Both the position numbers and the translations under genes were made by a program. 64,000 nt of DNA from a virus. Shown here in pieces: positions 429 to 56,769 of this stretch (its first letter is position 1; the number at the start of each line of letters is the position of its first letter). Location of the stretch: IMG/VR virus record IMGVR_UViG_3300045988_065173, positions 13,917-77,916 of that record. One strand, written 5' to 3'. The notes under the pieces are model-generated. The model saw only the letters and a program-made list of their open reading frames with translations. It had not been told where the DNA came from and did not search any database.

Positions 429-778
429 AATTTAGCAAAATCTTCTTTGACTTTGGCTTTAATCTCTTTTAATTTACTGAGATATTCTTTGTATTCCAGT
501 AAAGCTTCGGAATCCTCTGTAGGATTCTCTGTATAACTGTTGTATGAATTGATTAAATCAAATTCTTCATCAACAGTAAGAAAACTTCTAACAATTGCCT
601 TTACACAATCCTTATAATTAGGTTGTCCGCTAAGTAAAACCTAGATAAAGTTATACTAAAGCTCTAATTTAGTATCTCCTTCCTAGTCCGTTACTTCAGC
701 TTCGACTTCTTTTATATCATAGTTATAGTAATAAGTACCGTTCCCAAGTTTTTGGATTGTCTGGGGCTAAACGTCCAT
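425..778 (-). CDS. small late protein; 4 in-frame TAG codons
   Basis: ATG at 778-776 and TGA at 427-425. Translation is protein-like (…LLEYKEYLSKLKEIKAKVKEDFAKL) and is interrupted only by TAG. Confidence 0.4.
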
Positions 779-1979
779 TTGTATTCTATTCGGTTCTAAC
801 ATAAGGTGTTACTTTAAAATTTATAGGAAATTTGTATCTAAGCAAAGAATAATGTAATTTCTTATTCTTGCTTTTAAAATAATAGGGTTTGTTGTTATAC
901 ATAAAGTGCACTCTAAAATGGCTATGATAATCAACTACCTCTATAATGTGAATATACTTATTATAAAACTTAGATATATTGACTTCCTTTCCATTCCAAT
1001 TTGAGAACTTCAAACCAGTCAAAGTTTCTATCTTTTTCAACAAATTCTTAGAATTACAGAATTTCATCCATCCGAAATAAGATCTCATTCTTCTTTCCAA
1101 TTCTTCTCTATCAATCTTATTTTGCTTATATAGATTTATAAGCTTAAACATTCTCATTTTTATAGATTTTCTTAATAGAACGTGAGTGTGGTAAAATTTA
1201 TAGCCTACAAAATCTACTCCTCTACTTTCTACTGGAAATATCTAGTAGTTAGGTTTTAATTCTAAATTAAGAACTTGTTTTAAATACAGTTTTATAGATA
1301 CTAATACATTTCTCAAATAATTCTTGTCATTACCAAGAATCACAATATCGTCAGCATATCGAAAGTAGTACTTACATTTTAACTCCTCTTTTATCCAGTG
1401 GTCAAAATATGTCAGATATAAATTTGCAAAGAACTATGATAGATAGTTCCCAATAGGAACTCCTTTGGCTGAATATATTATTTCCTTCAATAGACTTAAC
1501 AGTTTCTTATCCTTTATTTTCTTCTACAACATCTCATACAGGATGTCATGTGTTATAGATGGATAAAATTTTCTTATATCCATTTTTAGACAGTATTTAG
1601 TTTCATCTGAGTATTTCTACAATACCTTGAATAAATCATACTCTACCTTATGAATCCCTCTATTTCTTATAGAGGAATATGTCTAATCTATAAAAATGCT
1701 GGTCCAGATAGGTTCCATAATATTCATTATAGCATGATGAGTGATTCTATCAGGGTAGTATGGAAGTCTAAAGATTAATCTTTCTTTAGGCTCATATATT
1801 ACAAACGTACTATACTCAGAAGTCTAATAGATTAACTATTTTAATTTGTCTGATAATTTCTTATTTTCTTCTAATCTATTCTTATCATGCTACTTAATAC
1901 CACATCGAATTGATTTATTTCTTCTAGCCTTATCATCAGCTAATTCGATGTTTTTCAAATCATACACTCGTTCGTGCAA
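723..1979 (-). CDS. DGR-type reverse transcriptase with ~11 in-frame TAG codons; alternative GTG/TTG start likely
   Basis: Hand translation of the minus strand gives IYEPKERLIFRLPYYPDRITHHAIMNIMEPIW…TYSSIRNRGIHKV…SQFFANLYL…FRYADDIVILG…VDFVGYKF (RT motifs 1-7 including YADD, DGR-RT-like N-terminal block). The standard-code ORF 786-1157 is only its C-terminal piece and its apparent stop at 788-786 is TAG. The frame continues to TAA at 725-723. An upstream in-frame TAA at 2003-2001 bounds the N-terminus, and there is no ATG before motif 1. Confidence 0.8.
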
Positions 1980-2140
1980 ATATCCTACACGTTTCAATTT
2001 TTATATATTTCATCGGAAGCTTTCGAGATTTAACCTACTAACACCCTTCATTTAACACTACGTTGTCTTTTGCCTAGAGGCAAGGATATCACTTAACAAA
2101 CTAAAAAAAATAAAATAAATTGTTCTAAATATATAATAAC

Positions 2141-2237
2141 TCAACATTGGAATTGGCATTGCTGACGTCATTGTTAGAATTGAAATAGCTAAGACCTGCA
2201 TTGCTACCATTATTCGCATTGCTGCCTACTAGCAGTT
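2141..2237 (-). repeat. DGR template repeat (TR)
   Basis: Minus-strand sequence gaactgctagtaggcagcAATgcgAATAATggtagcAATgcaggtcttagctatttcAATtctAACAATgacgtcagcAATgccAATtccAATgttgag. It is ~85% identical to the two VR copies, and every TR/VR mismatch has an adenine in this copy. In the target reading frame it is rich in AAT/AAC codons. Confidence 0.8.
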
Positions 2238-2310
2238 CTTTTTGCCAACCAACGGCTTTTAGAAGTAATATCCCACGATTTATATCTAAATCGATTTCTA
2301 TATTTTATTC

Positions 2311-4130
2311 TTAAGATACTCTGTTTAGAGTCCTGAACCCAACATAGGAACCGGCATAGCCGACGCCAAGGCCAGAATAGAAATAGCCAAGACCCGCAGT
2401 GCCACCAGAAGCCGCAGTGCCGCCCACCAGCAGCATGCGAAGCGCTGTAGAGCTAGCGTTGCAAGAGTGGTAATCACACATATAAGTTGTAGTTGAGGCT
2501 CCAGTACAAGAAGATGGTATAATCTCTGCTGTCTCTCCCAAGTCAAACTCTTTAATGTATCCATCTTGCGCTACCTCATATCCTGCTATGGTCTTGCTGC
2601 CAATTACGTCAGTAAACTCTTCCTTATTTGTGGTAGTATATACACTACTGATTTCATTTGCCGCAGTTCTTTGAATAACTACTCCATCTAAGTTTGTCCA
2701 AATATCTCCAAATGGATTGTCAAAACCTCTCCAACGTGGTACTTTGAAAGTGTGAGTAGCTACTGTATCTGTTCCGTTTGTTGCAGTACATTCTGGAATA
2801 ACTAAATCTTTGACTCCAGTGAAATTACCAATATCATTACAATAACCACATGGAGTAATAGGATAAGTTCCATTATATCCAGACCAACTTGTAGCAGAGT
2901 TACTCCAGTCTGTAACTCCAGGACCAAGTCCTCCTTGACGATAACCATCAGAGGTAAGCTCGGCATTGTAGGCAGCCTGAGAGTTAAAGTTAGCGTATTC
3001 TATTACATAGTTCCAGTAGAATATCCATTTATAATATTCATAACACAATAATTCAGAGCCTGCATTTGTGGCATAAGTTCTCATATTAGCTCTAGAAACA
3101 TTAGTTCTAGGTTTTCCTAAATCGCTTCTAAAAGCATCTTTGGTATCAAGTTCAGTAGTTAGATACTTATCGAATTGTACTCTATTTCCACCGCCTCTAA
3201 ATGCTTCTGTAGTATTGACCACGGACACAGCTTTAGGGGTTTCTGACACAGTATTGTCAACTGTATTTCTATATGCGTCAATTAATAGTTCTGGTATTTC
3301 TGCCCACGAATCATCAAGCTTTACTAGAGAAATTCTAACCCATCTTTTATTTCCATTAGAGCCTGATTTACCATAAAATTTAGGAGTGTGGACTCTTACA
3401 GTTCCATCAGTTCCATCAAGCACAGAAGGAGTAATTCCATCTTCTTTGTAAGCCCAATCGTCTGGATATAAATAGTAATTTACTACACCGTTATTTGCTA
3501 CACATCCTCTGTAAGCAGACTAAATAGGAAGGGATTTATGTAACAGTGGATTTCCTATTCTAGTAAGGATAGGAGAAGATACAGTGATGTCCCATTCTAC
3601 TCCATAAGAGTATAAGTCTACGTTACTGCTTAACTCTGTGACTTGTTTGCTTAGACTCTATTGTTCTTTTTGTAATTCTTCCCAAGCAGTATTAAGAGCA
3701 TCAAATTGTTCCTCTAACTTAGTACTAGTATCTGCCCACTATGCAGTCCCATCTTCAGAAAAGGTTAAAATCTATCCAAGTGCTCCTCCAGCAGGTATGT
3801 GTTTATTTCCAGAAGTAGTTGGGTGTACATAATTATTTGCATTATCTGCAATACCACTAAGTTTCTGTTTTTCAGTTTCTGTGTAATTAGCTTCAGAAAG
3901 TCCTTTTCCTGATTCCTTATCTACCTTACTTTCCAACTCCGTTTTAGTAGCTAAACCACTTATATCCTAGTGTTCTTTTAAATAATTTTCATCATTCTAT
4001 AACTAAGACACTTTAGTTGGAATGGCACTAGATTTTGCGTATGTCTAATCTATAGCATTTCCAGAGCCATCATAGGTAGCCTTTAAGTCATATACGGTTT
4101 CTCCAACCTTTATAGATTTGATAGCTGCCA
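2311..4130 (-). CDS. tail fibre / receptor-binding protein, DGR target 1; ~8 in-frame TAG codons
   Basis: ATG at 4130-4128 right after the TAA of the upstream gene. N-terminus MAAIKSIKVGETVYDLKATYDGSGN…KVDKESGKGLSEANYTETEKQKLSGIADNANNYVHPTTSGNKHIPAGGALG(Q)ILTFSEDGTA(Q)WAD carries the widespread phage tail-fibre motif, with TAG at positions that are Q/E in that motif. The standard-code ORF 2311-3423 (370 aa, GTG start) is only the C-terminal part. An in-frame TAG sits at 3522-3520. VR1 lies at the C-terminus. Confidence 0.7.
2338..2436 (-). repeat. DGR variable repeat VR1 (C-terminal 33 codons of the tail-fibre gene)
   Basis: Aligned by hand to the TR. All ~15 mismatches are at TR adenines (c,g,t in VR versus a in TR). 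Confidence 0.8.
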
Positions 4131-4132
4131 TA

Positions 4133-7100
4133 TTATTGTATTATTAAAGTTTCTTCTTCTACATTATGATCTATTCTTTCTATGGAGGCAGTTAAGTCTT
4201 CAACAGCTTTCTACAGTTCAGCCTTGGTAGCGTAGTTCTTTAATGTATCTGGGTCTATTCCAGATCCTCCTACATTTCCTCCAACAACTTTTACTGGTTT
4301 TGCTGAGTTCTTAAACTACCCTTCAACCCAAATTGTTCCCATACTATTTAAAATATTAATTGTTCATTTTCTCCATCTACCTGTACATTACCAGAACCAG
4401 GCTATATTGCATCTATTTTCTTCTACAATTCGTCTACAGCAGCCTTTATTAATCCTTCCACCTCAGCTTTTGTATAGTAACGTTCTGTTAGATATTCACT
4501 TCTGACATATCCTGTATCCTATATATCTTTTTCTCCATAAGTACAATAGTACGTATCGTTCTCTGTCCTATTATTTTCAACTAGGTCATCATAATCTGTT
4601 TGTGGAAGACATACCAATTTAGGAACCTCTTCTGTAAGAGCAACTTGCTTTCCAGATGCTAATAATCTATCGTCTTCTGTAGTAAGTTTAACAGAACTTT
4701 CAATAGTCTGTTCAGTTGTTTCATCTTCTGAACTTTCTCCAGTTGTTCTCTATTGTACTTCTTTTTCGACAATTTTCTAAATAGTAATATCAGAAGTTTC
4801 TATAGAGGTTGATTTTAGAAGCTCTGTGCTAAATTCCTTAGAAGCGGCATCCTAATCTTCCTAATATTTCTTCTAAGTAACAAATATAAAATCGTCATCA
4901 CCGGTTTCAGGAGAATCTCCTCTCAAACTTTCTTTTGTCACATACTCCTCTGCTATCTAATTGGAAAGGTCAGTTAATGACTATTGAGTGGCGTATGTAG
5001 ATTGAGCATTTTCTTTTGTAAGAAACTTTTCATCTACCTACGAGCTAGTGTAGTATGCTTTAATATCTTCTGTAGTAACGTAGCTTCCTAGTTTCTATAA
5101 ACCAGAAACAATTTCATCAATCTATGTCTTTGAGTAATAATTAGTAGCAACCCAGGACTAATACTGATGTGTAGTATGGTAATTTTGATCTAAGTACTCC
5201 TTAGTAATATAGACTTTAGCATCATTTGTTACATCATACACATAGTAATATGTGTCAGGTTCTATAGCATCCTCTTCTACCAGTCTTAAATATTCCTCTT
5301 CAGTTAATGTAACCAGATTAGGAACATCTGACATCATGGCGAATTGGTCTTCTCCAACAAACAACCCATTAGATTTAACATCTACTACTAGCTAATCCTC
5401 TTCTCCTACTACTGGAGACTTTATCTATCCTACAGTAATACTTTCTAGGGAACCATCTCCATCTACCTTTAAAGTCTTATCTAGCTCATCTTGGATAGCC
5501 TATTGGTCTTCGTCATACTATTTCTTTGTAACAAAGACAAAATCATCTCCTTCCATTCCTTCTCCTCTAAGACTTTCTTTGGTAACAAATATGTCATCAG
5601 TTTCTTCCTTAGTGTAATGGTTAGACAAGGCTTTAGATAACAAGGATTCTGGGTCCTCTAAATCTAGGTCAGTTTTAGGGGCATAATTCTCAGTTAATTC
5701 TTCAAGGGTAGCATACTTGGAAAGGTTAGAGATTGTCTAGTCTAAATCCGTTCTAATCTGTACGACAGTAGTATTTAGAGCTTTCTATTTCAACTATTCC
5801 TCTATCTTTTTACCCCATTCTGCTGATAAATAAAACTAATCATCATCTAGGCTGTCTTCATATATGTAATAATATGTTTCTGCATGAAGATATGTTTTAC
5901 CTTCGTCTATAGGTTTAAAATCTTCTGTGGTATTCTCAGACCATTCCTTATATTCAGCCTCTGTACAGGTGATTATCTAAATAGATTCATAAGAAGCTTT
6001 CCAACCTTCTTTGTATTTAATCTTAGACTTATCTACTAACATATAAATATTTCCGTTATCTATATTTGAAACGGTCATGCCTTGATAAGCATATTTCTCC
6101 GGAATAGAATATAATTCGTCTAAATTATTGACTACTGTTCTATTATCAAGAGGTTTAGGAGTTTCTACGGTTAAAGCAACACCTAATGTAGCATCACCTG
6201 TATATTTAAATGCCATTATTGTGATAAAGTAAAGTTAATTTGATGAGGCAATGCTGAAGAATAAGTATCCTTCTTAGTCCATACTTTATAAGGAAATCCA
6301 TTTATCTATTCGGTAGAAGTTTCCCAGCCACTTAAATCAACATTTAAGTATCCCAGTCCTCCATCTACTGTAAATGAATTTAGCTAAGTATTACTTCCGG
6401 GTAATTTTATAATAGCCTTTCCACTTAATGAAAATGTAATAATTCCAGAAGATTGTCCAAATGGAACAAGACTCTATTTGATTAAACTATCTGTATTACC
6501 AGAATACCAAGGGTAGGTAGCAGTCACCTATGCTGTAGTTGATATTGAACCAGCTTCCACCCTCTTGTCTGTAGTTTCTCCTTTATTGTTAATAAGATAT
6601 TCTCCAGCAGCATAATTTACAGTACCAGAATGCACATAAACACCAATAGAATCATATATTTCAGATTCTACAGGAGAATCATTATAGGTAATAGTTTCTT
6701 CTCTATCAGTTTCCTCTCCAGCATCATTTTTTATAAATGTTAAGGTAGGGGTAAGTAAAGCGGATCCTACCTCCACAATCTAAGAGGTGAAGCTATAATA
6801 CAACTAAGGATAAACCAAATCTCTAACAACAGTAGGAAATAATAGAGTATCTATAATCTCATTAAACGGCTTTCCTTTCAATTTTTCAACTGTAGTTCCT
6901 TGAATAACAGCAGAAGTGGTATCATCTGGAAGTTCAGTTTGATAAGTAGCTATAGTTTCTAAACTTGTCTATATATTTGTGATATTCTCAGTATTAGAAT
7001 CTACTTTAGAATCAGTGTTCTTCTAAGCTTCCTATACTCCCTTAACTTCTTCCTTTACCTCTGTTAGAGATGGTTCCAGGTCTTTTACATATATTCCAGG

Positions 7101-10100
7101 TAGGACTACTGTAGAAGGCTCTCCTTCCTCCTCTACTGGAGGAATTTCCTACTAAATAAGATGTATTGCGTTATCCTCCTACTAGGATAGAATTACTTCT
7201 AGAGTATTATCATCCTTTATTTCTATGGTTTTGGAGTTTCTTAGACTATTAGTTATCCAATTCTAGATGTTTTTGTCAACATCTATATTTTTGATAGACT
7301 CGTTAATACCCTCTATTGCCTCATTAATCTCGACTATTTTCTCAGAAAGATTGTTTATGCCAGTTCTGTTAGATTCAATTTCTTCTTCAAGTTCTTCCTT
7401 AAGTACAGTAATAGAAGTTCTGATATTACTTATATCAACTTTTATTTCCTCTATTTCTTCTGTATTAGCTTTGTACTAACTTATAAAGAATAAAGCATAA
7501 TCTAAGGCATCTTTTACAGTATTGATATTCTCTGCAACATCACTAGTATAAGTCCATTTCTATTCTATGTACTATACTAAATCTTTCTAGGCTTCTATAG
7601 TTCCTTCTATATTTCCCCAAAGAAGACTCTACTCATCAGCGATACCTAGATTCTTTCTAACCTTAGCTCTTTCTAATTCAGTTCTATATTCTCCAAGATA
7701 GTTGTTTCTTAGGAGAGGTATAGGTTCACTTTTTATTAAATGTCCTTTCTTTCCACAAGGCTTTATATCAGCATTGCTTACCGAAGTGTAAATAGGCTGT
7801 ATCATTATGATTCAATAATTGCTATTTAATAAATTCGTGATTATCTAATTTTACGGGTAGGTTAATAAAACAAATTAGATTCAAAATATCCTAATAATCT
7901 GGTCTATATCCCTTTCTAACCCTTTTAAGGAAATCCTCATACCTTTTAATAGCCTTTCTTTTAAGAGCATCCACAACCTATACGTTTATGTTCATGGTGA
8001 TTGTCACAGAATCCACCGCAAGTGCGGAACATTGCTAACAATCTTTCAGCTTCCATGAATTGTTTAAAGCCTATTAAATAATCTATAATATTAAGTGTCA
8101 TCCAGATAAAATCTCTTGCAAATATATCTGCATCATGTTCTCTAGTTAGACACTTATTTAATAAAAAGTCAAAGAGTTTCTTACAGTAGTTAATATAACA
8201 CTATTGCAGATTTCCTGTAAAGAACACATCTACCTTACATTTTTTGATAGTAGTCCCTTCTATATTCCTTTCAAGGATTTCTTTTACAGTACATTCCTCT
8301 AGCTCTCCATCTACTTCTTTATATAGTTTCTCTCCATCAGTTATATAGATAGTTTCATAATACTCCTTGTATTCATCAGATGAATTTTCATACCATTTCA
8401 TATTAGGAAGAATTATGTGGTCTACTACATAATATCCATCTTCTTTTACCTTAAATGTACAAGAGTCTAAATCCTCTGTATGGTCATTGAGAAGTACGTC
8501 TATCAAAGTAGCATCTCCTATACTAACTTTTATGATAGTATTTAGGGTAGCACTTTCACTATACTTATAAGAATCATAGGAAGTTACTACCTCTAAATCT
8601 TCATCAATATACTATCCATATTCCTTTGAAAAGTCTTCAATAGTTATTTCCCCGTTAATCTGGGTATGTATATCAATACTAAATTCCATATTATAATAAT
8701 TAAGACTCAGTAGTAGGCCATTGACCATATTGAGCAGGGATAGAAAATGGTTTCCACTTACCTTCTTGTCGTATACGTCTAGACATAAAAACTGAACTAA
8801 ATGATAAACTAATATCTTGAGGATAGTCTGTCCATGTATATGACTAACCTTCAGGAGTCGGTGGTAGACTATTTAACTTACCAGCTGGTTCCCCATTCCA
8901 ATAATAATTATAGTCATATGCTTTAGTTGGAGTAACAGTTGTTGTTTCATGTCCTTCCGAATCTACATATAGAGGATTTCCCTCCTCATCTGTTTTCTAC
9001 TTATACTCAATAACTGGAGTTATTCCCTCAGTTCTAGTGTATATGTTCTAAATAATAGTAGAAACATCACTTGCTACAATCTCATAAATAGTAGTTCCCT
9101 GAGATTCGTCAGCTCCCTAGAAAGTAAATTTAGTTCTTTTCCAGATGTATGGATTCTCTTCAGTTGGAAGTTCAAAAGTATCAGTCCACTATTTATTAGA
9201 TAATTTTATCTCAGATTCGTCAGCAGTGTCAGCAGGTAAGTAATGAATCTTAATAATAATATTATTTACCGCCTCACTAGAACCAGAAAGGTCTGACACC
9301 TATTTAAATAGTTTCTTTAAATCTTCTTCCACATTTGATTTGGAACCAGAAGCATTACTAATAATTACTGAACCATCTGAAATAGGATAAATCTATTGCT
9401 AATCCTTATCATATACAATTGTTCCAGTTGCCATATTAATGTATTTGTCTTATTTTGTCATTATACGGATTTCCATCATGAAGCTAAGCCAACTCTATTT
9501 CAGTTCTCTTTTCTTCTATATCCATTTGTCTATCTTTATATGTAGAATCAGATTGAGCTTTGAGCCAGTTAACCTTATATTCTAACTATATTTTCTGCTA
9601 CTCTAATCCTAATCTCTATTCATCCAAGCTTTCTATCTTCTACTAAGCTTTCTATAGTTCTTGCTATAACTGCTGTGCCTATTGTGAAGTTTCTTCCAAT
9701 TTTTCCTATAGCTGCTATAGCTAATTGTTTTCTTCTTTACGAATCTATACTGCTTTCTTAACCTTATATTTAAGGTCTGTAAGACTCTTAGCAGTTAGTG
9801 CCTCAAATATAATGTCAGGATCCATTTGCTGACTTTTAACAAACTCTGGAATAATAGCTTTAATAGTTTGTAAATCTTCCATTACTTCAGAGCTAGAAGT
9901 TATATGGATGTCATAATCAGTAACCGTAAAATATTCTGGAAGCGCTGTAAATATCTGCTGGTATTTATCTCCAAGTATAATAGTACCAGTCAATCCTTTC
10001 TTATATGTTATTTTAGCCTAGTTTAGACTGTCCAATAATATCTCACAAGTGATCAGATCCATCTACTAGAAATAATGCTTGGTTACTATGTAAGAGTTAG

Positions 10101-11540
10101 TAACACCTTGCTTAATATTAGTTACAGCATCATGAGTTTCTATTCCATTTAATCTTTCTCTAAATACTCCAGTTATAGATGATGTAGTTTGTTCTACTGA
10201 TTGAATTGCTAATTCAATAGCCTATACAGCCTAAGCTTTTAAGGTATCATCAAATCCATTGTATATCTAGTTAGGTGCTTGCGCTCCATCATTTCTTCCC
10301 TCCTAAGTGGAATCAATCCACATGATACCACCCTTCTTGTATGCTAACCATTTCTACACTCTTTCTGGCCATTTTACGCCTAGGTTAGTAGGAAGCAATG
10401 ACATATCCATGATTACTCCAGCAGTACCGCTGTTAGCTATCAGGTTGTCCCTATAATAATTTAACAAGTCATATCTATCCTATAGATGTGCACATTTTAA
10501 TATCAGGGAGTATGGTTGTTGAGAACGATTTAAGAAATATACCCCATTTACAGACAAAGAGCAGAAATTAGGATTATCTTTTGACCTCATAACAGTCTTG
10601 TCTAGACCTCTCAGAATATATATTTCTTCTCCAATTCTAATGGTATTGTATCTCTACATTACAAAATCGTCATCAGTTTCTATCCACTCTACATCATAAA
10701 CAGGAATTAACTAAAATCTATGAGCACTATATTCATTATCTGGATATCCAGGAATAGTTTCATGATTCTAGTCTTCATTTACTATAGTACAAGTGTCACC
10801 ATAAACTCTTCTATAAACTGCAGCTGAATCATCGGCTCTCCATTCATCTTTTAGTCTTTTCAAATCTTCTCTAGAGATTTCTTTTCCGTATTTAGCTAAT
10901 ATCTAGCTTTTACTCATCCATTTTCTAACTACTACTCTATACGAATTTTTAACATATGGAGATTCTGGATTCCTATCTACGAAAGTATTTAAAGGATTCA
11001 GAACTTCTATTTCTATGTTAGTTCCAGAAGATGATGATTTTACTCTGAAAAATGTATAGCCAGTAATTAATAAATCTGTAAGTAACTATCGGAGTTTAGT
11101 TATTAAATCGGTTTCTCTAGACTGCATGATATAATGAATAATATTCTATGCAGCTATCTCATATTGAGAAATAAAAGACTAATCAATGTCTTGAATAATT
11201 TTATCTAACTAAGTCTTCACGGCTTTATCTGTAATATCTTTTCCGTCGATAAATTTCAGAATAGAATTACTTAAATGGTCTCTAAGAAATTTAACTATCC
11301 CTTTAGTTATTTCCAACTATTTTTCTCTGGTGATATTACTAATGGTATCTGAATCCTTACAAGAAATCTTCGGAAGGATAGGGGTTCCTAGATATTCCCC
11401 TACTAGAGCATCTACGTGCTTCTTTAGTAATGGTGTAAATTCTACAGAAGTAGGACTACCTATTCCGAAGTTTTCTTCCAGGTAACGAAACTATTCTGGA
11501 TCTCTCTTTCCGTTGTAGTAATTATAGGCTTTCTATAATT
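4133..11540 (-). other. late structural gene block (head/tail/portal genes presumed); minus-strand coding with TAG as sense, individual genes not resolved
   Basis: Dense minus-strand coding signal but only short standard-code ORFs (5158-5364, 5977-6216, 6528-6776, 8201-8506, 9745-9993). Every checked interruption is 'cta' on the plus strand, i.e. TAG on the minus strand. Confidence 0.5.
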
Positions 11541-11548
11541 CGTACTTA

Positions 11549-14165
11549 TCATATACAAGCTCCGCAATAGCCTCGTTCGTCTTGTCTATCAGTTCTTTTT
11601 CTTTCATAACATAAATTATGCTGTTCTGGAGGAAGTTTAGTTGCATTATAGTATTTAACTCTTTGTAACTTCCTACTTCTTAATTCTTCCTTTATAAATG
11701 GGAGAAATTCTTCATCAGGTAAATCAGCTATAATGACTAAAGGCATCTCTGACCTATCAAAGTTAAATGATACCTTATAACCAACTGGATCTAGGTTCTG
11801 AATTTCAAGCCCACCTACGTATTCCATTTTGTACAAGTCTCTCATATAACCTAGGATCACTTGTTTCAATTCTGTATGGGTCATCGTATTCATTTTTTTG
11901 TATGTTAGTTTCAAAAGTCTTAGAAGTTGGTATAACCCCAAATCTTTTGATTCCTCTCTCGTCGTAATAATAACCATAATCTTGGAATTGTTCAACTTCT
12001 TTTTCAACAAGCACTGGCTATCTTCCTGACAATTCCTAGTCTGCCAATTCTGTCATTCCTACAGCGGCTACAATATCGAATTTACCTTTATTCTCATCAT
12101 TATATCCAGTAAATTGGTCTAACATTTCTTCAAACCATATAGTATGACAGAAATCCTCAATAAAGGCTGCTGTCAAATCAGTATGTTGTTCTATAATAGT
12201 TTTGGTAGCGGGTGTTCCGTACTATTTAGTAGTTCCATTCTTGACGTCTGTTAGAGTAGCTCTAGGTCTTTTCATAAAGTAGTTTAAACAACCCTTTTCT
12301 CTAGCCCAGGTAATCATACCTACACGAGTAGCTTCTATGTTTATTCTACAATTATAGTATCTAGCTAAACACATAGCTATTTTATAGGCTTCTCTAATGT
12401 CATTAGGTCTGTCTTTATACATAGCAACATACTACGGTTCGTTTAGACCAAATGCTCTTCTTTTTATAGTTATACAGAAATCAGAAGGGTCTCTTGTTTC
12501 TTTTGAAGTTTGACTAGCTCCTATATCAATGCCGTCTATTCCTGCAACATATAAATCATGCATTTCTTTATACGCTGGAGATTCAAATTCTTCTCCCCTT
12601 TCCTCAGCTTCCTATCTAAGTTTATCCATCTACTCTTTATACAAATCAGACCATACAGGATGTTCAAGTATTTTTACTTTTCCGTTAATATTAGGAATCC
12701 ATTTAAAACCATCTATATTATCCTAGGTGTGTTTATTATTTTTATAGAAGTAGTCTATGTATCCAGATTCTGGTCTTGGTCCTATTTTCTTAAGTCTTAT
12801 ATTAGCTAATTGGTCTGCAATAAGAATCTTGTTGAACTTGTTAACACCTTCAAGATTAAATGCTTCTTCTGCATTCCAACATCGTTCGGCACACTTCTTT
12901 AGATAGTCGTCTGGAACTGCTAATAAATTGTCACGCTCTTCCTATAGATACTTTTTATATTCTACTGTATTACACACACCTCTATGGTCCATGTATTCTG
13001 AATTTAGAGACTAGACAAAATATGGAATGAAGAACCCACTTTCAATAGTAGTCCCATCCTGTGTATAATTATGTCTAAATGGAAGAACTTTGTAAGCTTT
13101 TGGATTATAATATATTTTCTTAAGACCTGCTAATGGAGCACCCATATCACCACCAGTACCTCCAAATAACATTGTTCCACGAGGTTTACCCTGAACTTCA
13201 CAAAGCTCTTGTCCCTGCACTACAGCAGTATCTAGTCCAGGCCAAGACCCTGCTTCATCATATATTAATAGGTCAACACGGTCTCCACGAATATTAGATG
13301 CCTTAGCTCCATTTATTCCAACTACTTCTGATTTAAACCCAACATCCTCAAACTGCCCGTTTACCTTAATCTGTTTACCGGACTTCTTTCTTAAGTCTTG
13401 GTCAATCAAACGTAGTTTGAAGAATCCTCCTCCTGTACAAGTATTCAAGAATGTTAAAGCATTATCAAACTTACTAAAAGTACCTTTAAGGAAGGTATCA
13501 TTAAAACAAGTAATCATTACTCTGCTTCTTCTGATTACTGAATACATTCTTGCAGATAAGGATGCATTTATTTCAGAGAATCCAATAGAACGAGCTTTCA
13601 TGAGAGCTGCGTGTTTATGCAGGACTCTAGCCATCTATAGATAATGAAAGAACATATAATGAGATGCGAAAAATATAGGAAAGTCACTACTTGTTCCTTC
13701 TCCAGATGCCTTGTTATCATCAATAATAGGAAGCTAGTAGAAGTTTAGGAAGAAATAGTTATCTCCAGTAATTGTATAACCATTAACAGTCATTCCATAT
13801 TTACATCTTCTATACTATTCCTTCCAAAACTCATTATATCTCTTACTATCTTTTAGATATGGACAATACTTTCCAGTTTTTCTATATACTTCTCTGGTCT
13901 CAGTAAACCAATCTGGGTCGAAGTCAAGACCGTGTGTTTCATCTATTGGTCTATATCCAGTTATTTCATAAGATAAAGTAGGGTCAAATACCTCTATCTT
14001 ATCTCCTCTTTTTACATCCCAATAATCAGCATTTTTGCCTCTTTCCTCTCTTATCTTCTATACTAGTTCTCTAGCTTCTTTGGCATCCTCTTTTTGTTCT
14101 TTCTCTCTTACCTAATCTACTATATTCTAGATTTCTTCAGGTAATATTTTTTTCTTTCTAGGCAT
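11549..14165 (-). CDS. terL: terminase large subunit (TerL), multiple in-frame TAG codons; boundaries approximate
   Basis: ATPase-domain fragment 13011-13634 has a Walker-B-like DLLIYDEAG and a Walker-A-like LMKARSIGFS. The frame reads through TAG at 13013-13011 into nuclease-domain fragments (12222-12422, 11549-12010), and also upstream through TAG at 13637-13635 to an ATG near 14165. Confidence 0.6.
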
Positions 14166-15547
14166 AATTAAAAGTCTCCTGGGTCAAAGCCGTCTATAGC
14201 TCCACCTCTTACAGTAGATTGTTCTGTAAGCTCTTTCTTAACCTGCTCTTCTAGTGTTACTAATTCTTCATGAACTTTATGAAGAGTAGCCATTTCTTTC
14301 ATTACCTTTTCAGCTTGAAAGACGGGTTTGCCATTATTATCACGTTCATTTAAATCTACTATAGTATCAAAATAATCAATAAACTAGTCAGCTGCTCTTT
14401 TAGCTGCTTCTAGAAGTTTTATTGATTTGTTAGAATCCTATAATGCTCGGTATTTTCTACAGGCTTCCCTGAATAATGGGTCATTAAATTCGGATTCAGA
14501 TAGTCCAGAGTCGCTAATAGCCTCATCATGTCTTTCATGTTCTGAATATTGGCTATAAGGACTCTTCCAATCAATAGCTAGATAAATGTAAGATAATTCT
14601 CTAGTTACTCGTTCCTTGTCAACAGATTTATCTCTCTGTATCAAAGCCTTAAACTCTTTAACTAGAAGAAGCTCTGGTTCATTTATTTCTAACTATTTAG
14701 TTAAAGTGTTATAATTAAATACATTCATACTCATCAATCATTAACATTAACATCTTTAATCTTTTTATTTCATTTTAGAACCGCATTTACTTACTTTCAT
14801 TTTAGAACCACAAGAATCCTTCTTAGCATACTTTGTTCTATCTGGAACCCATTTTCCATTTTTAAAGTTTCCTTTATGTCCCTTATTTGCCATGACCTCC
14901 TAGTCATTATATTTATTAATAGATACAGAATCTCTAGATGCTTCATCCTTTGCAGATTTCATATCCTTTCTATACTAAGCTCTTCCAGCCTTGAACTTGT
15001 CGACCTCATTAGCTTTCTTAGTAACCTTAGTTCCTTTCTATGCTTTTTGGCAAGCTTTGCAGATTCTTCCTCCCTGTTTAAAATAAACAAGTTCCTCTCC
15101 TTCTGGGCATACTCCTTTTAATTTTTTATAGTATTCTAGTTTAGCTCCAAGTCTAGCCATAACTCCGCCTTGCATCTTCTACATAAATTCTTGATACTTA
15201 GCTTTAATTCCATCTTCTCCAAGCTATTCAGCGTAAGCCTATAAATCTTGCTCTGATTGTAATTGTATTCCTTGTGCTTGGGCATCTTGTATCAAGTATG
15301 CCATGAATGCCTTCCGTAATTCTTCCTAATTAGCCATTACTCTTCTACTTTAATTAAATCCTTTGTATTAAATACTGCTTCCTGCATTAATCCAGAATCA
15401 GTAAACCATCTACATCTTAGTCCTCGTAATCCTTGGTTATCTTTAAATAAAGCTGCTTCTCTTCTTAGAACAAGCATAACTGGAGAGTGCATTACTTTAC
15501 ACTACCGTAAAGTAACACAATCCCCAGGCTTAAAATAAACTTTTTCA

Positions 15548-51608: not shown

Positions 51609-52436
51609 ATGAAGACAATTATTAAGCTTTTGTGTGTATTAACTTTGGTGTTTGGCTTGTCTAGTTGTGGCTACGAGAGAATTGATGCTGGTTACGAAGG
51701 CATTAAGGTGAATCTATACGGAGACGGTAAAGGAGTAGATGATGTGTCTCTTGTCACTGGTGCAGTATGGTATAACCCTGTTACTACAGCTGTATACGAA
51801 TATCCGACATTCGTACAGACTGTGGACTATCCTCCATTTAGTATTAATGCTAAAGATGGATCATCATTTACTGTAGACCCTACAATTTCTTTGAAGATTG
51901 TTGACGGGAAATCACCAGAAGTATTTAAGAAGTATAGAAAGGAAGATATTGTAGAGGTAATTAATACTACTTTGTATAACTACGTAAAGAATGCTTTTCG
52001 TATTCAGCTGAATAACTATACTACTGATGAACTAGTAAGTAAACGTGAGGAGTTTGAGAAGTCCATAGAAGATAGACTGACAAAGGAACTTTTGGCTGAG
52101 AACTTTCAGCTTGAACAAATGACTTCTGGTCTTCAATATCCACAGACGCTAGTCAATTCTATTGATGCTAAGAATGCTGCAATTCAACAGGCTTTGAAGG
52201 CAGAGAATGAAGTTAAGACTATTGAGGCAGAAGCTAAAAAGAAAGTAGCAGCCGCACAAGGAGAAGCAGAAGCTCTTAAGATTAAGGGTGATGCAGAAGC
52301 TGAATATAATAGAAAGATTTCAGCATCTTTGTCAGTTCTCATAGTTCAGCAGGATATGATTAAGAAGTGGGATGGAAAACTTCCTACTTATGGTCAGGTT
52401 CCCACCTTATTTAAAGACGTAGCTAATAACAAATGA
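51609..52436 (+). CDS. SPFH/band-7 domain lipoprotein
   Basis: MKTIIKLLCVLTLVFGLSSCG is a signal peptide with a lipobox. An SPFH-like body and a C-terminal coiled coil follow. Confidence 0.65.
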   Translation: MKTIIKLLCVLTLVFGLSSCGYERIDAGYEGIKVNLYGDGKGVDDVSLVTGAVWYNPVTTAVYEYPTFVQTVDYPPFSINAKDGSSFTVDPTISLKIVDGKSPEVFKKYRKEDIVEVINTTLYNYVKNAFRIQLNNYTTDELVSKREEFEKSIEDRLTKELLAENFQLEQMTSGLQYPQTLVNSIDAKNAAIQQALKAENEVKTIEAEAKKKVAAAQGEAEALKIKGDAEAEYNRKISASLSVLIVQQDMIKKWDGKLPTYGQVPTLFKDVANNK

Positions 52437-52780
52437 TGTATCTAGTAATATGCACTGTGATGGTAATCATCACGGTGCTTATCTTGAAAGATACCCATGT
52501 AACCGTTTATTACAATTGGTATAGCAGAAGTGGGCCACATATAGAAGAAGACTATGACCTTAAAGTTCCAGTGTGGCTAGTTTTAGTAATACTAATCCTA
52601 GGATTTATTCCAGTACTGAACATTATGCTATACACAGTAGGATATTTATTCTATATAGTTCATGCTGTGTGGAATCCAGATAAGTTGTTTGGATATACAC
52701 ATAAGTTCAATCTAAGAGGAAATAATTTTCTAACTAGAATAGTGAAGAAGATATGGAAATTCTTAAATGTATGTGTATAA
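52433..52780 (+). CDS. small polytopic membrane protein downstream of the SPFH lipoprotein
   Basis: Several hydrophobic helices. Confidence 0.45.
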   Translation: MMYLVICTVMVIITVLILKDTHVTVYYNWYSRSGPHIEEDYDLKVPVWLVLVILILGFIPVLNIMLYTVGYLFYIVHAVWNPDKLFGYTHKFNLRGNNFLTRIVKKIWKFLNVCV

Positions 52781-53277
52781 CACTGAAACATCTTAGGCGA
52801 ATACTTAGACATAAGTTTTGGGTAGCTTATTACTGTTTTCAGTTAGGTCTATACAAACAGGGTATCTTGCACGACTTATCTAAATTCGGATGGTATGAGT
52901 TCTCTCGTTCTGTAAAATTTTACGATGATGACACATCTCCCTTAAACAAGGAAAAAGAAATTCTAGGATATTCTAGGTCTTATTTACATCACAGAGGAAG
53001 AAATCCACATCACTACGAGTACTGGGTAACTAAGCTAGACATTGGAGGCGTTCCAGTGAAGATGCCTAAAGAGTATGCTCTGGAATTAGTATGCGATTAT
53101 CTAGCTGCCGGCAAAGTATATAATGGTAATAGTTTTCAAGGAGAATATAACTGGTGGATTAAGTATATAAGTTCTCCTAGGGCTATCCATCCAGAAACTA
53201 AGGAATTTATCACTCAGTGCTTTAAGAATTTAGCTAGTGGTAAAGGCATGAAAAGTTTATTAACAATTAGTTATTAA
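52753..53277 (+). CDS. hypothetical His-rich (HD-like?) protein
   Basis: HDLSK…LHHRGRNPHH. Confidence 0.4.
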   Translation: MEILKCMCITLKHLRRILRHKFWVAYYCFQLGLYKQGILHDLSKFGWYEFSRSVKFYDDDTSPLNKEKEILGYSRSYLHHRGRNPHHYEYWVTKLDIGGVPVKMPKEYALELVCDYLAAGKVYNGNSFQGEYNWWIKYISSPRAIHPETKEFITQCFKNLASGKGMKSLLTISY

Positions 53278-53290
53278 AATAATTTTTAGA

Positions 53291-54853
53291 ATGGAAATAA
53301 TTAATGCAACAGATGGCTATAAATTGGGCCACCACAGAATGTACCCAGAAGGTACTGAACAAGTTTACAGTAATTGGACTCCAAGAAGTAACAAATACTT
53401 TCCAGAAGCCACTGAAGGTTCTGTAGTATTCGGAATCCAGTATTTAATTAAAAAGTATCTGATTGACGAATTTAACAAGAATTTCTTTGAGTTGCCTAAA
53501 GAGAAAGCTGTAGAAATGTTTTATCGAAGAGTTCACAACTTCGTGGGAATTGAATCTGTAGGGTATAGACATATTGAAGCCTTGTATGATTTGGGTTATC
53601 TTCCTATTCGCATTAAAGCGTTGCCAGAAGGTTCAGTATGCCCTATCAGAGTTCCCATGATGACTATTACTAATACAAAGTCAGAGTTCTTCTGGTTAAC
53701 TAATTATCTAGAGACTTTGATTAGTTGTACTCTGTGGATGCCTTGTACCTCTGCTACTAGAGCAAGACTCTATAAGAAGGAACTTAAAAGACACGCAGTA
53801 TATACTGGATTTCCAGAAGATATAAATCTGGATTTCTTGTGTCATGACTTCTCTATGAGAGGAATGGCTGGTTTAGAGGCTGCTATCATTTCTGGTATGG
53901 CACATATGACTTCGTTTGTTGGAAGTGAGACCATTCCAGCTATTGCTGCTCTAGAAGAATATTATGGTGCAAATTCTGACAATGAATTAATTGCTGCTAC
54001 TGTTCCAGCCACAGAACATTCTGTAATGTGTGCTGGCGGAGAAGAGGATGAACTTCAAACCTTTAAGCGATTAATTAATGAATTGTATCCATCTGGGTTC
54101 GTTTCTATAGTTTCTGATACTTGGGACTTCTGGAATGTTATTGAAAACTTCCTTCCCAAATTAAAGAAGGATATTATGGCTCGTGATGGACGTGTAGTTA
54201 TTCGTCCAGATAGCGGAGACCCTGTTGATATTATTTGTGGTTTAAGAACTAATCCTCACCTCCATACTAGGATGAAAGAGGGTAAGTATTATTGTTGCTA
54301 TGCTCCATTTAACGATGATGCTGAGTATGTAGAAGTTTCAGAAGGTCAATATTACGGAGCATATTATATGCTTGGTAAAATATTCGGCTGGAATACTACT
54401 TCTAAGGATTATCGCTATCCTAGTACGAAAATAGGTTTGTTGTATGGTGATTCTATTACTCTTGAACGTCAGAAGCAAATCTATATGCGACTTGAGAACG
54501 CTCATATGGCAGCTTGCAATCTTGTTCTAGGAGTAGGTTCATTTTCATATCAGTATGCAAGTAGAGACAGCTTAGGATTTGCAATTAAGGCTACTGCTTG
54601 TGTAATTAATGGAGAATTGAAAGAAATATTCAAACATCCTAAGACTGATGATGGAACTAAGAACTCTTTGAAAGGTCTGATTGCAGTATATCAGGATGTC
54701 AATGGTGTCTACTATGCTGAAGACCAAGTAACCCCTGAAGTAGAGGATGGAGGTTGTCTAGAAACTGTATTTGAAGACGGTGTTCTTAAGAAGGAATACA
54801 CTCTTAAAGAAATTAGACAGCGAATTAATGAAGGGCTTTATGGAAAGTTTTAA
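53291..54853 (+). CDS. nadV: nicotinamide phosphoribosyltransferase (NadV/NAMPT)
   Basis: N-terminal INATDGYKLGHH (TDSYK-like NAMPT signature). 520 aa. Confidence 0.75.
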   Translation: MEIINATDGYKLGHHRMYPEGTEQVYSNWTPRSNKYFPEATEGSVVFGIQYLIKKYLIDEFNKNFFELPKEKAVEMFYRRVHNFVGIESVGYRHIEALYDLGYLPIRIKALPEGSVCPIRVPMMTITNTKSEFFWLTNYLETLISCTLWMPCTSATRARLYKKELKRHAVYTGFPEDINLDFLCHDFSMRGMAGLEAAIISGMAHMTSFVGSETIPAIAALEEYYGANSDNELIAATVPATEHSVMCAGGEEDELQTFKRLINELYPSGFVSIVSDTWDFWNVIENFLPKLKKDIMARDGRVVIRPDSGDPVDIICGLRTNPHLHTRMKEGKYYCCYAPFNDDAEYVEVSEGQYYGAYYMLGKIFGWNTTSKDYRYPSTKIGLLYGDSITLERQKQIYMRLENAHMAACNLVLGVGSFSYQYASRDSLGFAIKATACVINGELKEIFKHPKTDDGTKNSLKGLIAVYQDVNGVYYAEDQVTPEVEDGGCLETVFEDGVLKKEYTLKEIRQRINEGLYGKF

Positions 54854-55268
54854 CCATCCATTCGGAAAAGAGGCTTGCAAGAAGCGACTATTAGAAGAGT
54901 ATAAAAAATACGGAAAGCTAATAGTCGCTTTCGATTATGACAACACTATTTTTGACTACCATAATAATGGAGGAGACTATAGTTGTGTCGTCAACTTATT
55001 GAGACATTGTACTATGCTAGGTTTTGAAATGATTTTATTTTCCACTGAAGAAGATGAAGATAGAATTATAGAGAAACAAGTGGAGTGTGTTCAAATGAGG
55101 GTAGGGAATCTTATCAATGATATGATCATACCTCCCTTTACAAGTAGTAGACTATTCCCAAATTCTAAAAAGCCCTATTATAATATTTTACTGGATGATA
55201 GAGCAGGCTTAGAAGAAAGTTACGAAATTTTAAAATATGTTGTAGATGAAATTATTAAACTTAATTAA
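54831..55268 (+). CDS. HAD-superfamily hydrolase
   Basis: LIVAFDYDNTIFDY is the DxDxT motif I. The start is taken at an internal Met to avoid overlap with nadV. Confidence 0.5.
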   Translation, partial: KGFMESFNHPFGKEACKKRLLEEYKKYGKLIVAFDYDNTIFDYHNNGGDYSCVVNLLRHCTMLGFEMILFSTEEDEDRIIEKQVECVQMRVGNLINDMIIPPFTSSRLFPNSKKPYYNILLDDRAGLEESYEILKYVVDEIIKLN

Positions 55269-56058
55269 CTTGGACAAGAGTGAGATTAAGTATAACCTCA
55301 CTAGATTTCCTGACGGAGAACCTCAGATAAGTTTTCCTGACGAATTTGATAGGAAAGATTCAGTAAAGGTTATATGTAGAATTACTTCTGCTGAAGAATT
55401 ATTTATTCTAACTCAAGTCGGAGACATTCTTGATAGACAAGAGATTGAGTGGGATTTGTTTATTACCTATCTAATGTCTATGCGTATGGATAGAGTAATG
55501 GACTTTAACCGACCATTTTCTCTAAAAGTGGTTTGTAGTATCTTGAATACTATGAACTATCGTTATATTATGATTTTGGAACCTCATTCGGAAAGAACTA
55601 AGGGATTGTTAGGAACTAGATGCTATCCTCAAAAGTTTAACTTTGAATCGCATTTGGATGTTCAATCTAATATTGTATTTCCAGATGCTGGAGCTTACCA
55701 AAGGTACAAAATTCTCTCTAATAATTGGGGACATATTGTGTTCAATAAGGTGAGAGATTTGGAAACTGGTAAGATTAAGGAGTTTTCCATTGGAAGAGAG
55801 GTTAATTGTTATTATCCGACCTTTACTTTTATTGATGATTTGTGTGACGCTGGAGGAACATTCCTTGGGGAGCTTAAAGTTCTTAAAGAGAGATATCCAG
55901 ACTCTAAATTCGAGATTATAGTTTGTCATGCTGTAAATATCAAAGGCTTGGTAAAGCTGTGTAACAATTTTGATCGTGTTATAATAACTAATTCATATTG
56001 TGATTATGGATATAAGCCTAGTAATAATAATTTAACAGTGATAGATGTATGCGGATAG
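55246..56058 (+). CDS. prs: ribose-phosphate pyrophosphokinase (PRPP synthetase)
   Basis: FIDDLCDAGGTF is the PRPP-binding loop (DDxxDTGGT-like). Ends TAG-TAA. Confidence 0.7.
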   Translation: MKLLNLINLDKSEIKYNLTRFPDGEPQISFPDEFDRKDSVKVICRITSAEELFILTQVGDILDRQEIEWDLFITYLMSMRMDRVMDFNRPFSLKVVCSILNTMNYRYIMILEPHSERTKGLLGTRCYPQKFNFESHLDVQSNIVFPDAGAYQRYKILSNNWGHIVFNKVRDLETGKIKEFSIGREVNCYYPTFTFIDDLCDAGGTFLGELKVLKERYPDSKFEIIVCHAVNIKGLVKLCNNFDRVIITNSYCDYGYKPSNNNLTVIDVCG

Positions 56059-56295
56059 TAATTTAAAAAGAGATGGTAATTGAAGGTCCATTTTACAGGT
56101 TAACCCCAATTAACGATTCATCTCCTCGTTTCGACTTGGAGTTGTTATGTGATATTGGTGGTAAAAATCCGAGAAAAGAGTTTAAGGTAGTAGGATATGG
56201 ATTCCTGCTAGAATCTGCAGTGGAGAGATGTATCCACTATGCAGTTAGAAGAAAATTCGGAAAAGATGAAATTGTAACTTTAGGTAAGTACTTGG

Positions 56296-56769
56296 ATGAG
56301 TTTAAAAAAGCAAAGGAGGAGATTGAACTCCAAATCTACGGAAGTACAAGAAATTCTAGCGGAGAGGCTGAATAAACTTTGTAGGTTTCTAGATGAAGAG
56401 TACGATATTAACGCTGGAGGGTGTTGCTATGTAGCATATTGCCTGGCAAAACTTCTTAGTAAGGACAAGTTCAAGTTTAGAGTAATAATATACGAAGATT
56501 ATGAGTTAGAAGATAGATTTAGTGAAATTTCTGGAAGTCACTATCATTACGCTATTGGTATCGGAAATTATACAATAAATTCTGCTGAATGTGATGAAGA
56601 CGAAAGCTTTTGCAGAAATATATATTATAATGTAAGAGCTTCTGAAATTCTAGACCACTATAAAAATCGTAGCTGGAACGAATGTTACAATTCAGAAAAG
56701 AATAAATTTATCTTTAGAACTATTCAAGTATTTTATGACGACCTTACGGAAGACTTACGAGAAAGATAG
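56296..56769 (+). CDS. hypothetical protein; apparent genuine TAG stop
   Basis: 157-aa ORF ending in TAG. The protein-like ORF 56735-57022 overlaps it in another frame. Confidence 0.4.
   Translation: MSLKKQRRRLNSKSTEVQEILAERLNKLCRFLDEEYDINAGGCCYVAYCLAKLLSKDKFKFRVIIYEDYELEDRFSEISGSHYHYAIGIGNYTINSAECDEDESFCRNIYYNVRASEILDHYKNRSWNECYNSEKNKFIFRTIQVFYDDLTEDLRER

Follow-up and report, generated by a model that had tools for sequence, protein, structure and literature searches.

Depletion of NAD+ is among the commonest anti-phage strategies of bacteria. Phages most often answer it with NAD+ reconstitution pathway 1 (NARP1), in which NAD+ is rebuilt from ADP-ribose (ADPR) and nicotinamide. Phage homologues of the phosphoribosyl pyrophosphate (PRPP) synthetase Prs that are encoded beside homologues of NadV, a nicotinamide phosphoribosyltransferase (NAMPT), are ADPR pyrophosphokinases (Adps), and the transferase Namat couples their product, ADPR pyrophosphate (ADPR-PP), and nicotinamide straight to NAD+ (Osterman 2024, bioRxiv 10.1101/2024.02.11.579819). 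Here we describe a four-gene region at positions 52753–56058 of a 64-kb stretch of viral DNA (IMG/VR record IMGVR_UViG_3300045988_065173, positions 13,917 to 77,916; hereafter the window). The region is likely to be the NARP1 operon of a crAss-like phage, extended by a phosphatase of the haloacid dehalogenase (HAD) superfamily that would feed the pathway. The nearest known core is the NARP1 of Bas63, SpbetaL1, Fado and ICP1 (bioRxiv 10.1101/2024.02.11.579819; structures PMC12774641, PMC13586617), with which the window shares a PRPS-fold ADPR pyrophosphokinase and a NAMPT-fold transferase with an adenine clamp, encoded in one operon and with no nicotinamide mononucleotide adenylyltransferase (NMNAT) in the window.

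Two accessories that widen NARP1 are known. In NARP1-AP of Vibrio phage Gary (gene order Adps-Adpp-Namat) the Macro-domain protein Adpp dephosphorylates ADPR-1''-phosphate (ADPR-1''-P), which lets NARP1 beat the RES-domain NAD+ phosphorylase defence aRES (bioRxiv 10.64898/2026.01.28.702374). The other is RyDEP, an RyR-domain glycosidase whose gene is inserted in the NARP1 operon of mycobacteriophage DyoEdafos; it converts 2'/3'cADPR to linear ADPR for Adps and so counters cyclic-ADPR signals (PMC13232231). The pathways NARP2 (Nampt and Nmnat) and NARP3 (PnuC and NadR) likewise restore NAD+ in phages facing NAD+-depleting immunity, NARP2 also with a NAMPT-family enzyme. Both need an adenylyltransferase acting on nicotinamide mononucleotide (NMN), whereas none is encoded in the 64-kb window and no homologue of PnuC or NadR was found.

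The window derives from a gut crAss-like phage with a host among the Bacteroidales, and represents 64 kb out of a phage genome of about 186 kb. Contigs of about 145–190 kb in IMG/VR, e.g. IMGVR_UViG_3300045988_060496, encode module proteins that are 98–99% identical to those of the window. The closest DNA in deposited phages is that of the Bacteroides phages DAC15 and DAC17, which matches a portion of the NAMPT-like gene at about 72% identity. All genes of the window between about 22 kb and 64 kb lie on the plus strand, and the region comprises the following open reading frames (ORFs):

52753–53277, plus strand: DUF5662 protein, 174 aa (Pfam DUF5662, E 1.7e-28)
53291–54853, plus strand: predicted Namat (nicotinamide ADP-ribose transferase, NAMPT-family), 520 aa; second NARP1 enzyme
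54828–55268, plus strand: predicted cap-less HAD-superfamily phosphatase, 146 aa; between Namat and Adps
55246–56058, plus strand: predicted Adps (ADP-ribose pyrophosphokinase, PRPS-fold), 270 aa; first NARP1 enzyme

The Namat and HAD genes overlap by 26 nt and the HAD and Adps genes by 23 nt, which fits a single operon. Namat and Adps are on the same strand with one gene between them, and thus lie within the ten genes or fewer that define NARP1 in Osterman 2024. A scan of 51–58 kb for sigma-70 promoters and terminators gave counts equal to the shuffled expectation, Bacteroides promoters being outside the sigma-70 model.

The product of 53291–54853 belongs to the NAMPT fold family according to Pfam (NAPRTase, 1.1e-33; NAMPT_N, 4.2e-10), NCBIfam (NF006629, 524 bits, cut-off 405) and PHROGs (phrog_448, 1.7e-182, labelled 'nicotinamide phosphoribosyl transferase'). 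Its top matches in the PDB were the structures of SpbetaL1 Namat (9W5X/9W5W; E 1.7e-150, 505 bits), while human, rodent and bacterial NAMPTs scored about 222 bits, less than half as much. A Namat-specific selectivity clamp has been described from structure as GSXphiXphiXphiTRD, with aromatics at positions 3 and 7, together with the basic loop residue R40. In the window protein the clamp reads G416-S-F418-S-Y-Q-Y422-A-S424-R425-D426 (GSFSYQYASRD), with the T of the motif replaced by S, and K35 is aligned to R40 in the alignment with the PDB match. The catalytic core, mapped by hand from the alignment using SpbetaL1 D13, Y15, F189, R192, D215, the catalytic His, R306 and D308 as reference positions, is kept at D8, Y10, F187, R190, H243, R305 and D307.

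The Prs-like protein encoded at 55246–56058 matched phrog_619 (1e-52, labelled 'ribose-phosphate pyrophosphokinase') and had no Pfam PRPS domain (Pribosyltran_N, Pribosyl_synth) at E <= 0.1. It scored well under the cut-offs of all nine NCBIfam PRPS models. Against TIGR01251 (cut-off 113) it reached 58.7 bits, as compared with 66 for the Adps of BPS13, 98.2 and 99.9 for the experimentally validated enzymes of ICP1 and Gary, respectively, and 422.7 for Prs of Escherichia coli. Two measures were discarded as discriminators between Adps and Prs. Percent identity is nearly the same in both directions, about 24% for the window protein against the ICP1 and Gary Adps and about 23% against E. coli Prs, and phrog_619 gave E. 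coli Prs 193 bits and the window protein 180. Since phrog_619 does not discriminate, the NCBIfam cut-offs were used instead, together with a reciprocal test based on a hidden Markov model (HMM) of 43 Namat-adjacent Prs-like proteins, each less than 37% identical to the window protein. With this model the score was 184.4 bits for the window protein, compared with 137.6 bits for E. coli Prs. Seven residues of ICP1 Adps whose importance is known from mutagenesis or structure (R87, H121, D161, K185, D212, D213 and D216) are all kept, as R80, H114, D147, K168, D197, D198 and D201. The C-terminal alpha11-alpha12 regulatory module of PRPS is missing, the protein stopping about 40 residues short of where E. 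coli Prs does.

It could be argued that the pair represents an ordinary NAMPT with its own PRPP supply, producing NMN for a host NMNAT to finish, as in NARP2 or in salvage, with the HAD protein as a nucleotidase or regulator. The fold families of the two proteins are indeed those of NAMPT and PRPS, and the PP loop of the window Adps, DAGGT, is nearer to the DTGGT of PRPS than to the DGAAS of ICP1. However, the transferase carries the adenine clamp motif of Namat and scores more than twice as high against Namat structures as against NAMPTs, and the Prs-like protein fails the PRPS thresholds and sides with Adps in the reciprocal HMM. Furthermore, published surveys place Namat homologues that are paired with Adps in the NARP1 clade, and those from phages lacking Adps in a clade associated with Nmnat. 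We therefore consider an NMN-producing pair extremely improbable, and its assignment to NARP1, based on these family comparisons, very probable.

A previous, sequence-only reading of this DNA had marked the same four ORFs, and these are real, on the plus strand and with exactly those boundaries. It had also recognised a phage NAD+ reconstitution module of the type that counters NAD+-depleting defences, in agreement with the NARP1 assignment. Its calls of NadV and Prs were right as to fold family and wrong as to enzyme. HMM annotation of the ORFs, named there beforehand as the test that might overturn the calls, did reassign both: the first to Namat, by the SpbetaL1 Namat scores and the clamp motif, and the second to Adps, by scores under all PRPS cut-offs and the reciprocal HMM. 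The dedicated PRPP supply postulated in that reading is lost with the second call, the Prs-like protein falling below every PRPS family cut-off. The suggestion of a variant pathway holds for the HAD gene as the variant element and fails for the PRPP supply, and the core is NARP1 as published in 2024. No NMNAT had been seen by eye, and this was confirmed by a Pfam scan of the 78 ORFs of at least 70 aa in the 64-kb window (translation code 11), which had no CTP_transf_like (NMNAT), NUDIX or Macro domain. The scan left out the large TAG-recoded ORFs of the first ~15 kb, which by eye are structural or reverse transcriptase-like. A tblastn search of the window with six Adpp/Macro queries likewise found nothing. 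A check of 52753–53277 or 56073–56769 for NMNAT or Nudix domains had been recommended; none was found there in the Pfam scan, and the ORFs 56073–56375 and 56296–56769 match nothing in Pfam or NCBIfam. As NARP1 requires no NMNAT, its absence from the window is expected and represents no novelty.

The ORF between Namat and Adps had no match in Pfam, NCBIfam or PADLOC. Its start was placed at ATG 54828, giving 146 aa, from the lengths of homologues (P0001: 99% identical, 146 aa). A profile comparison with the PDB reached E 0.06 at best, to 2obb. Searching 5.8 billion proteins with the ORF retrieved 456 candidates, 446 of them at E <= 0.001. In an alignment of 37 homologues D36-x-D38-x-T40 (HAD motif I), K115 (motif III) and D123-D124 (motif IV) are invariant, and position 72 (motif II) is, as judged by eye, S or T in all rows. 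The AlphaFold model, a confident one (predicted local distance difference test score, pLDDT, 90.5), has the Rossmannoid HAD fold, and its closest characterised structural relative is the 3'-phosphatase of T4 polynucleotide kinase (T4 PNK). Judged by its motifs and its modelled structure, the protein is a catalytically competent cap-less HAD phosphatase. It is 17–21% identical to BT_0820 (PDB 2obb), which has no known function, and to the 3'-phosphatase domain of T4 PNK (1ltq, 5uj0), which acts on 3'-phosphates of DNA and RNA; neither is tied to NAD+ metabolism. HAD enzymes hydrolyse sugar phosphates via an aspartyl-phosphate intermediate, and the conversion of ADPR-1''-P to ADPR would thus be chemically ordinary for such an enzyme.

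Existing annotations of this family point elsewhere. The ORF matched phrog_1238 (8.8e-14), labelled 'phosphoheptose isomerase', and the same label is found in several RefSeq phage records (BPS13, DIGNKC, cr126_1). The label is at odds with the HAD motifs and fold, and is probably an error that has spread between records. Among the 120 homologues listed, none has a HAD Pfam domain, and three (P0055, P0059 and P0061, of 210–225 aa) carry PF00004 (AAA) alone.

The genomic neighbourhood of the HAD homologues is conserved. A scan of IMG/VR with the HAD alignment yielded 78 loci (numbered with the prefix L below), in about 72 of which Namat is directly upstream and Adps directly downstream. This Namat-HAD-Adps contiguity persists at 40–45% identity of the HAD protein and 26–45% identity of Adps. 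Among bacteria, a scan with one genome per GTDB species also gave 78 loci; all three genes were present within the locus in 45, and adjacent in most. The order Namat-HAD-Adps is shared by Flavobacteriia (Tamlana, Tenacibaculum, Winogradskyella and others), Adps-HAD-Namat was found in L076, L081, L082 and Saprospiraceae, Adps-(HNH)-Namat-HAD in the Bacillus Wphvirus phages BPS13 and DIGNKC, and HAD-Adps-Namat in Paenibacillus and Cohnella. Together, the HAD gene is contiguous with Namat and/or Adps in crAss-like, Lak and Bacillus Wphvirus phages, Flavobacteriia, Saprospiraceae and Paenibacillaceae, in four gene orders. The Adps-Namat pair of Paenibacillus foliorum has been biochemically validated, and the third gene is unmentioned in that paper.

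A generic small phosphatase, for example a dNMP/NMP nucleotidase or an inorganic pyrophosphatase pulling the Namat reaction, might have entered this position as a passenger in an insertion hot spot. The Namat-Adps junction and the operon flanks are variable, with insertions of an AAA ATPase, HNH genes or introns in relatives. The HAD gene is missing from two near-identical phages, its homologues also occur without NARP1, and HAD-family pyrophosphatases do exist in Bacteroides, BT2127 being one. However, the gene stays contiguous with NARP1 in four different orders and in at least six lineages that are only distantly related, bacterial chromosomes included, and chance insertion in a hot spot is insufficient to account for this. 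The slot is furthermore otherwise occupied by a homologue of a validated ADPR-1''-P phosphatase. A passenger is therefore very unlikely, and we are fairly confident that the HAD enzyme functions within the pathway.

The operon flanks do appear to be an insertion hot spot. In L003 (MT836666.1) a Walker-A-containing stretch of about 210 aa, AAA+-like by eye, lies between DUF5662 and Namat at 3801–4420, in frame with Namat, and L023-like loci have a comparable gap of about 800 nt between these two genes. In the crAss-like loci L273 (1010–4599) and L275 the Namat gene is in three pieces owing to inserts, one of which is a 318-aa ORF that is homing-endonuclease-like by eye. This split arrangement suggests self-splicing introns or inteins. 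Adps follows directly after Namat in both, without an accessory gene.

The slot between Namat and Adps is not always occupied by the HAD gene. A set of crAss-like loci (L138, L140, L142–151 and L156) has the order DUF5662-Namat-X-Adps with no HAD match. Their Namat is 74–78% identical to that of the window (from partial tblastn hits in four), and X encodes a 164-aa Macro-domain protein whose identity to the Adpp of Vibrio phage Gary is 37% (E 2.4e-27). In a neighbour-joining tree of Namat these Macro loci are nested in a clade that also holds the HAD loci L048, L049 and L050, which implies that the occupant of the slot has changed within a narrow lineage. After de-duplication, 88 distinct NARP1 loci (phage-derived, plus the window) were distributed as 70 with HAD, 14 with Macro, four with neither and none with both. 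A sample of 43 loci seeded on Adps, and hence unbiased for HAD, gave 28, eight, seven and none, respectively. Finally, in L088 and L089, whose Namat is 94% identical, Adps comes directly after Namat without a HAD gene. Such presence/absence polymorphism is as expected for an accessory counter-defence gene.

These observations can be accommodated in the following scheme. A defence NADase of the host would split NAD+ into nicotinamide and ADPR. Adps would pyrophosphorylate ADPR at the expense of ATP (ADPR + ATP -> ADPR-PP + AMP), and Namat would combine the product with nicotinamide (ADPR-PP + nicotinamide -> NAD+ + pyrophosphate), so that neither NMNAT nor a PRPP supply would be needed. The HAD enzyme, whose gene is seemingly translationally coupled between those of Namat and Adps, would act as a feeder, stripping the phosphate from a phospho-ADPR that NARP1 cannot use and thereby yielding ADPR. 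Its likeliest substrate would be ADPR-1''-P, as released by RES-domain NAD+ phosphorylases (aRES). This would make it a non-homologous functional counterpart of the Macro protein Adpp, i.e. a case of non-orthologous displacement. By analogy with Adpp we put ADPR-1''-P forward tentatively as the substrate. The presence of aRES in 4.74% of Bacteroidota genomes, with a B. thetaiotaomicron strain and Prevotella species in the published genome table, makes this defence a plausible target of the operon.

The similarity to NARP1-AP is one of organisation, in that a gene for a phosphatase-type protein of about 150 aa stands between the NARP1 genes in both. The accessory of NARP1-AP is a Macro domain, whereas that of the window has a HAD fold of the Mg2+-dependent type with an Asp nucleophile, unrelated in sequence and fold. 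The window operon may thus at best function like NARP1-AP, and falls outside it as defined since it has no Macro gene. It resembles the operon of DyoEdafos in having an accessory enzyme inserted, but RyDEP is not a phosphatase and its fold is unrelated to that of the HAD protein.

Several features set the window operon apart from published NARP1 or weigh against our interpretation. Its gene order differs, with Namat first, Adps last and a third gene between them. The Adps is highly diverged, its identity being no more than ~24% to the validated enzymes and ~23% to E. coli Prs, and phrog_619 is unable to tell the two enzymes apart. Of the aromatics that contact adenine/ATP in ICP1 Adps, F92 and F223 are replaced by M85 and G208; F18 and F221 are retained as F21 and F206. 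Since E. coli Prs has F18 as well, these aromatics, kept only in part, do not discriminate between the two enzymes. In Namat, the nicotinamide-binding D215 of SpbetaL1 (D219 in human) is E213. This is a conservative change, and Glu at this position ('GSETIPA') is common to the crAss-like relatives L003, L138 and L273. Namat of the window also has, after residue 317 (region 318–355), about 27 extra residues rich in Tyr and Cys ('KEGKYYCCYAPFNDDAEYVEVSEGQYY') that SpbetaL1 Namat lacks. As for the HAD gene, the Lak megaphages (L085, Prevotella phage Lak-B1, and L086, Lak-A1; genomes of ~545 kb) have HAD-Adps with no Namat within 6 kb, the phage loci L079 and L087 have HAD without a nearby NARP1 gene, and 25 of the 78 bacterial HAD homologues, which are more distant, have no NARP1 gene within 6–8 kb. 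Clustering the neighbours of these solitary bacterial homologues revealed no conserved partner that was informative, and Tpt1/KptA, RES and NAD genes were all absent. The locus samples were gathered by homology to HAD, DUF5662 or Adps, and a single gut phage lineage predominates in them. While the family and clade assignments, the intact motifs, the operon structure, the conserved neighbourhood and the alternation of HAD and Macro are directly supported, the enzymatic activities of all module proteins and the substrate of the HAD enzyme are predictions from sequence. Finally, L242 (6139–8200), on a contig from a metagenome-assembled genome (DAORGW010000032.1), has Macro (6139–6699), Adps (6699–7508), two small ORFs and a HAD homologue clipped by the contig end. 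It is the single locus found with Macro, Adps and HAD together. An ORF of calcineurin-like phosphoesterase type (by eye) lies 2 kb upstream.

The co-occurrence in L242 argues against strict redundancy of HAD and Macro, and a substantial alternative is therefore kept, in which the operon is NARP1 and the HAD enzyme has a role or substrate different from that of Adpp, recycling leakage or widening the substrate range instead of being specific for aRES. Its substrate could then be 2'-phospho-ADPR from NADP+ cleaved by NADases, or ADPR-1''-P from opened ADPR-1'',2''-cyclic phosphate, with the HD-like DUF5662 protein or a 2H phosphoesterase encoded at 34467–34874 as candidate openers. ADPR-PP is indeed known to decay spontaneously to ADPR-1'',2''-cyclic phosphate in infected cells (Osterman 2024, bioRxiv 10.1101/2024.02.11.579819). 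The presence of Macro and HAD in one locus suggests that their roles are not identical. DUF5662 is found beside both HAD and Macro operons, and within the operon in L071/L152. In addition, the window does encode the 2H phosphoesterase (tRNA_lig_CPD), and the T4 PNK 3'-phosphatase, nearest to HAD in structure, works on nucleotide ribose phosphates. On the other hand, equivalent function is the simplest reason for HAD and Macro to alternate so cleanly within a tight Namat clade, and DUF5662 is also found without NARP1 in a backbone-like manner, is a putative hydrolase, and is absent from HAD-NARP1 operons outside crAss-like phages. A role distinct from that of Adpp is thus unlikely, though well short of negligible. 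We also think it improbable that the HAD proteins form a third class of NARP1 feeder, acting on a phospho-ADPR that no characterised phage enzyme handles. Candidates would be 2'-phospho-ADPR from cleavage of NADP+ or the products of opening ADPR-1'',2''-cyclic phosphate, possibly together with the DUF5662 protein as phosphodiesterase. If true, this would point to a defence with a still unknown NAD(P)+-depleting chemistry, or to a built-in branch for repair of ADPR-PP decay, and would span Bacteroidales, Flavobacteriia, Bacillus and Paenibacillaceae.

The NARP1 core is already known, and the HAD phosphatase in the Adpp slot appears, from the literature that could be consulted, to be an undescribed and widely distributed accessory. 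No paper tying a HAD protein to NARP1 was found in a literature search, and the accessible part of the published table of NARP1 neighbours lists Macro proteins alone. The only paper found that contains both 'NARP1' and 'haloacid dehalogenase' is about the Metis defence protein MisB and is unrelated. No mention of crAss-like or Bacteroides phages was found in the text of the 2024 preprint (bioRxiv 10.1101/2024.02.11.579819). If the feeder role of the HAD enzyme is correct, a third unrelated accessory would mean that phages have repeatedly and independently solved the feeding of ADPR into NARP1. The family is spread over the abundant crAss-like phages of the human gut, Lak megaphages, Bacillus phages and, on bacterial chromosomes, NARP1 operons from several phyla. 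As a sequence marker it would help to annotate such operons, there being no Pfam or NCBIfam model yet, and it would add Bacteroidales and their crAss-like phages to the NAD+ arms race, a system in which knowledge of defence and counter-defence is scant.

Upstream of Namat, the DUF5662 homologues point to a start at ATG 52771, giving 168 aa. Their alignment has a mean column identity of 64%, with invariant H20, H40-D41, H79-H80, H86-H87 and D115 (H/HD/HH/HH/D). The sequence-only reading had described this ORF as His-rich and HD-like; the former is correct, and the pattern weakly suggests a possible HD-like metal-dependent hydrolase. The gene adjoins NARP1 in 65 of 80 viral loci, being inside the operon in L071/L152. 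It is also found together with the downstream ORFs in phages without NARP1 (L135, L137, L153 and L154). The proximity to NARP1 is probably backbone synteny, and a functional link of DUF5662 with the pathway seems rather doubtful. ORFs 56073–56375 and 56296–56769 are likewise treated as backbone, because they are unmatched and accompany DUF5662 even where NARP1 is lacking. Directly 5' of the module lie a gene for a lipoprotein-like SPFH/Band-7 protein (51609–52436, 275 aa) and then one for a membrane protein (52433–52780, 115 aa); a second SPFH/Band-7 protein of 652 aa is encoded at 31025–32983.

The 2H phosphoesterase ORF (34467–34874, plus strand, 135 aa) matches the Pfam family tRNA_lig_CPD, 2H cyclic phosphodiesterase, with 32.4 bits against a cut-off of 23, and sits 20 kb from the NARP1 operon. 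From this match it could be an RNA-repair enzyme, a nuclease acting on cyclic-nucleotide signals, or an opener of ADPR-cyclic phosphate.

Some crAss-like phages recode stop codons. A late/structural block on the minus strand at 700–15400 of the window has in-frame TAG codons, 2–33 per ORF and 8–33 in each of the six larger recoded ORFs, unlike the NARP1 region, which uses the standard code. Stop-to-stop ORFs of at least 150 aa in this block amount to 1887 aa under code 11, 6473 aa with TAG readthrough and 2450 aa with TGA recoding. By eye, the recoded ORFs include ones resembling a terminase large subunit (11805–14183) and a portal protein (9436–11679). Another TAG-recoded ORF of about 425 aa (723–2000, minus strand) has a reverse-transcriptase-like YADD motif ('RYADDIVILG'), and may encode such an enzyme from a diversity-generating retroelement or a group II intron.

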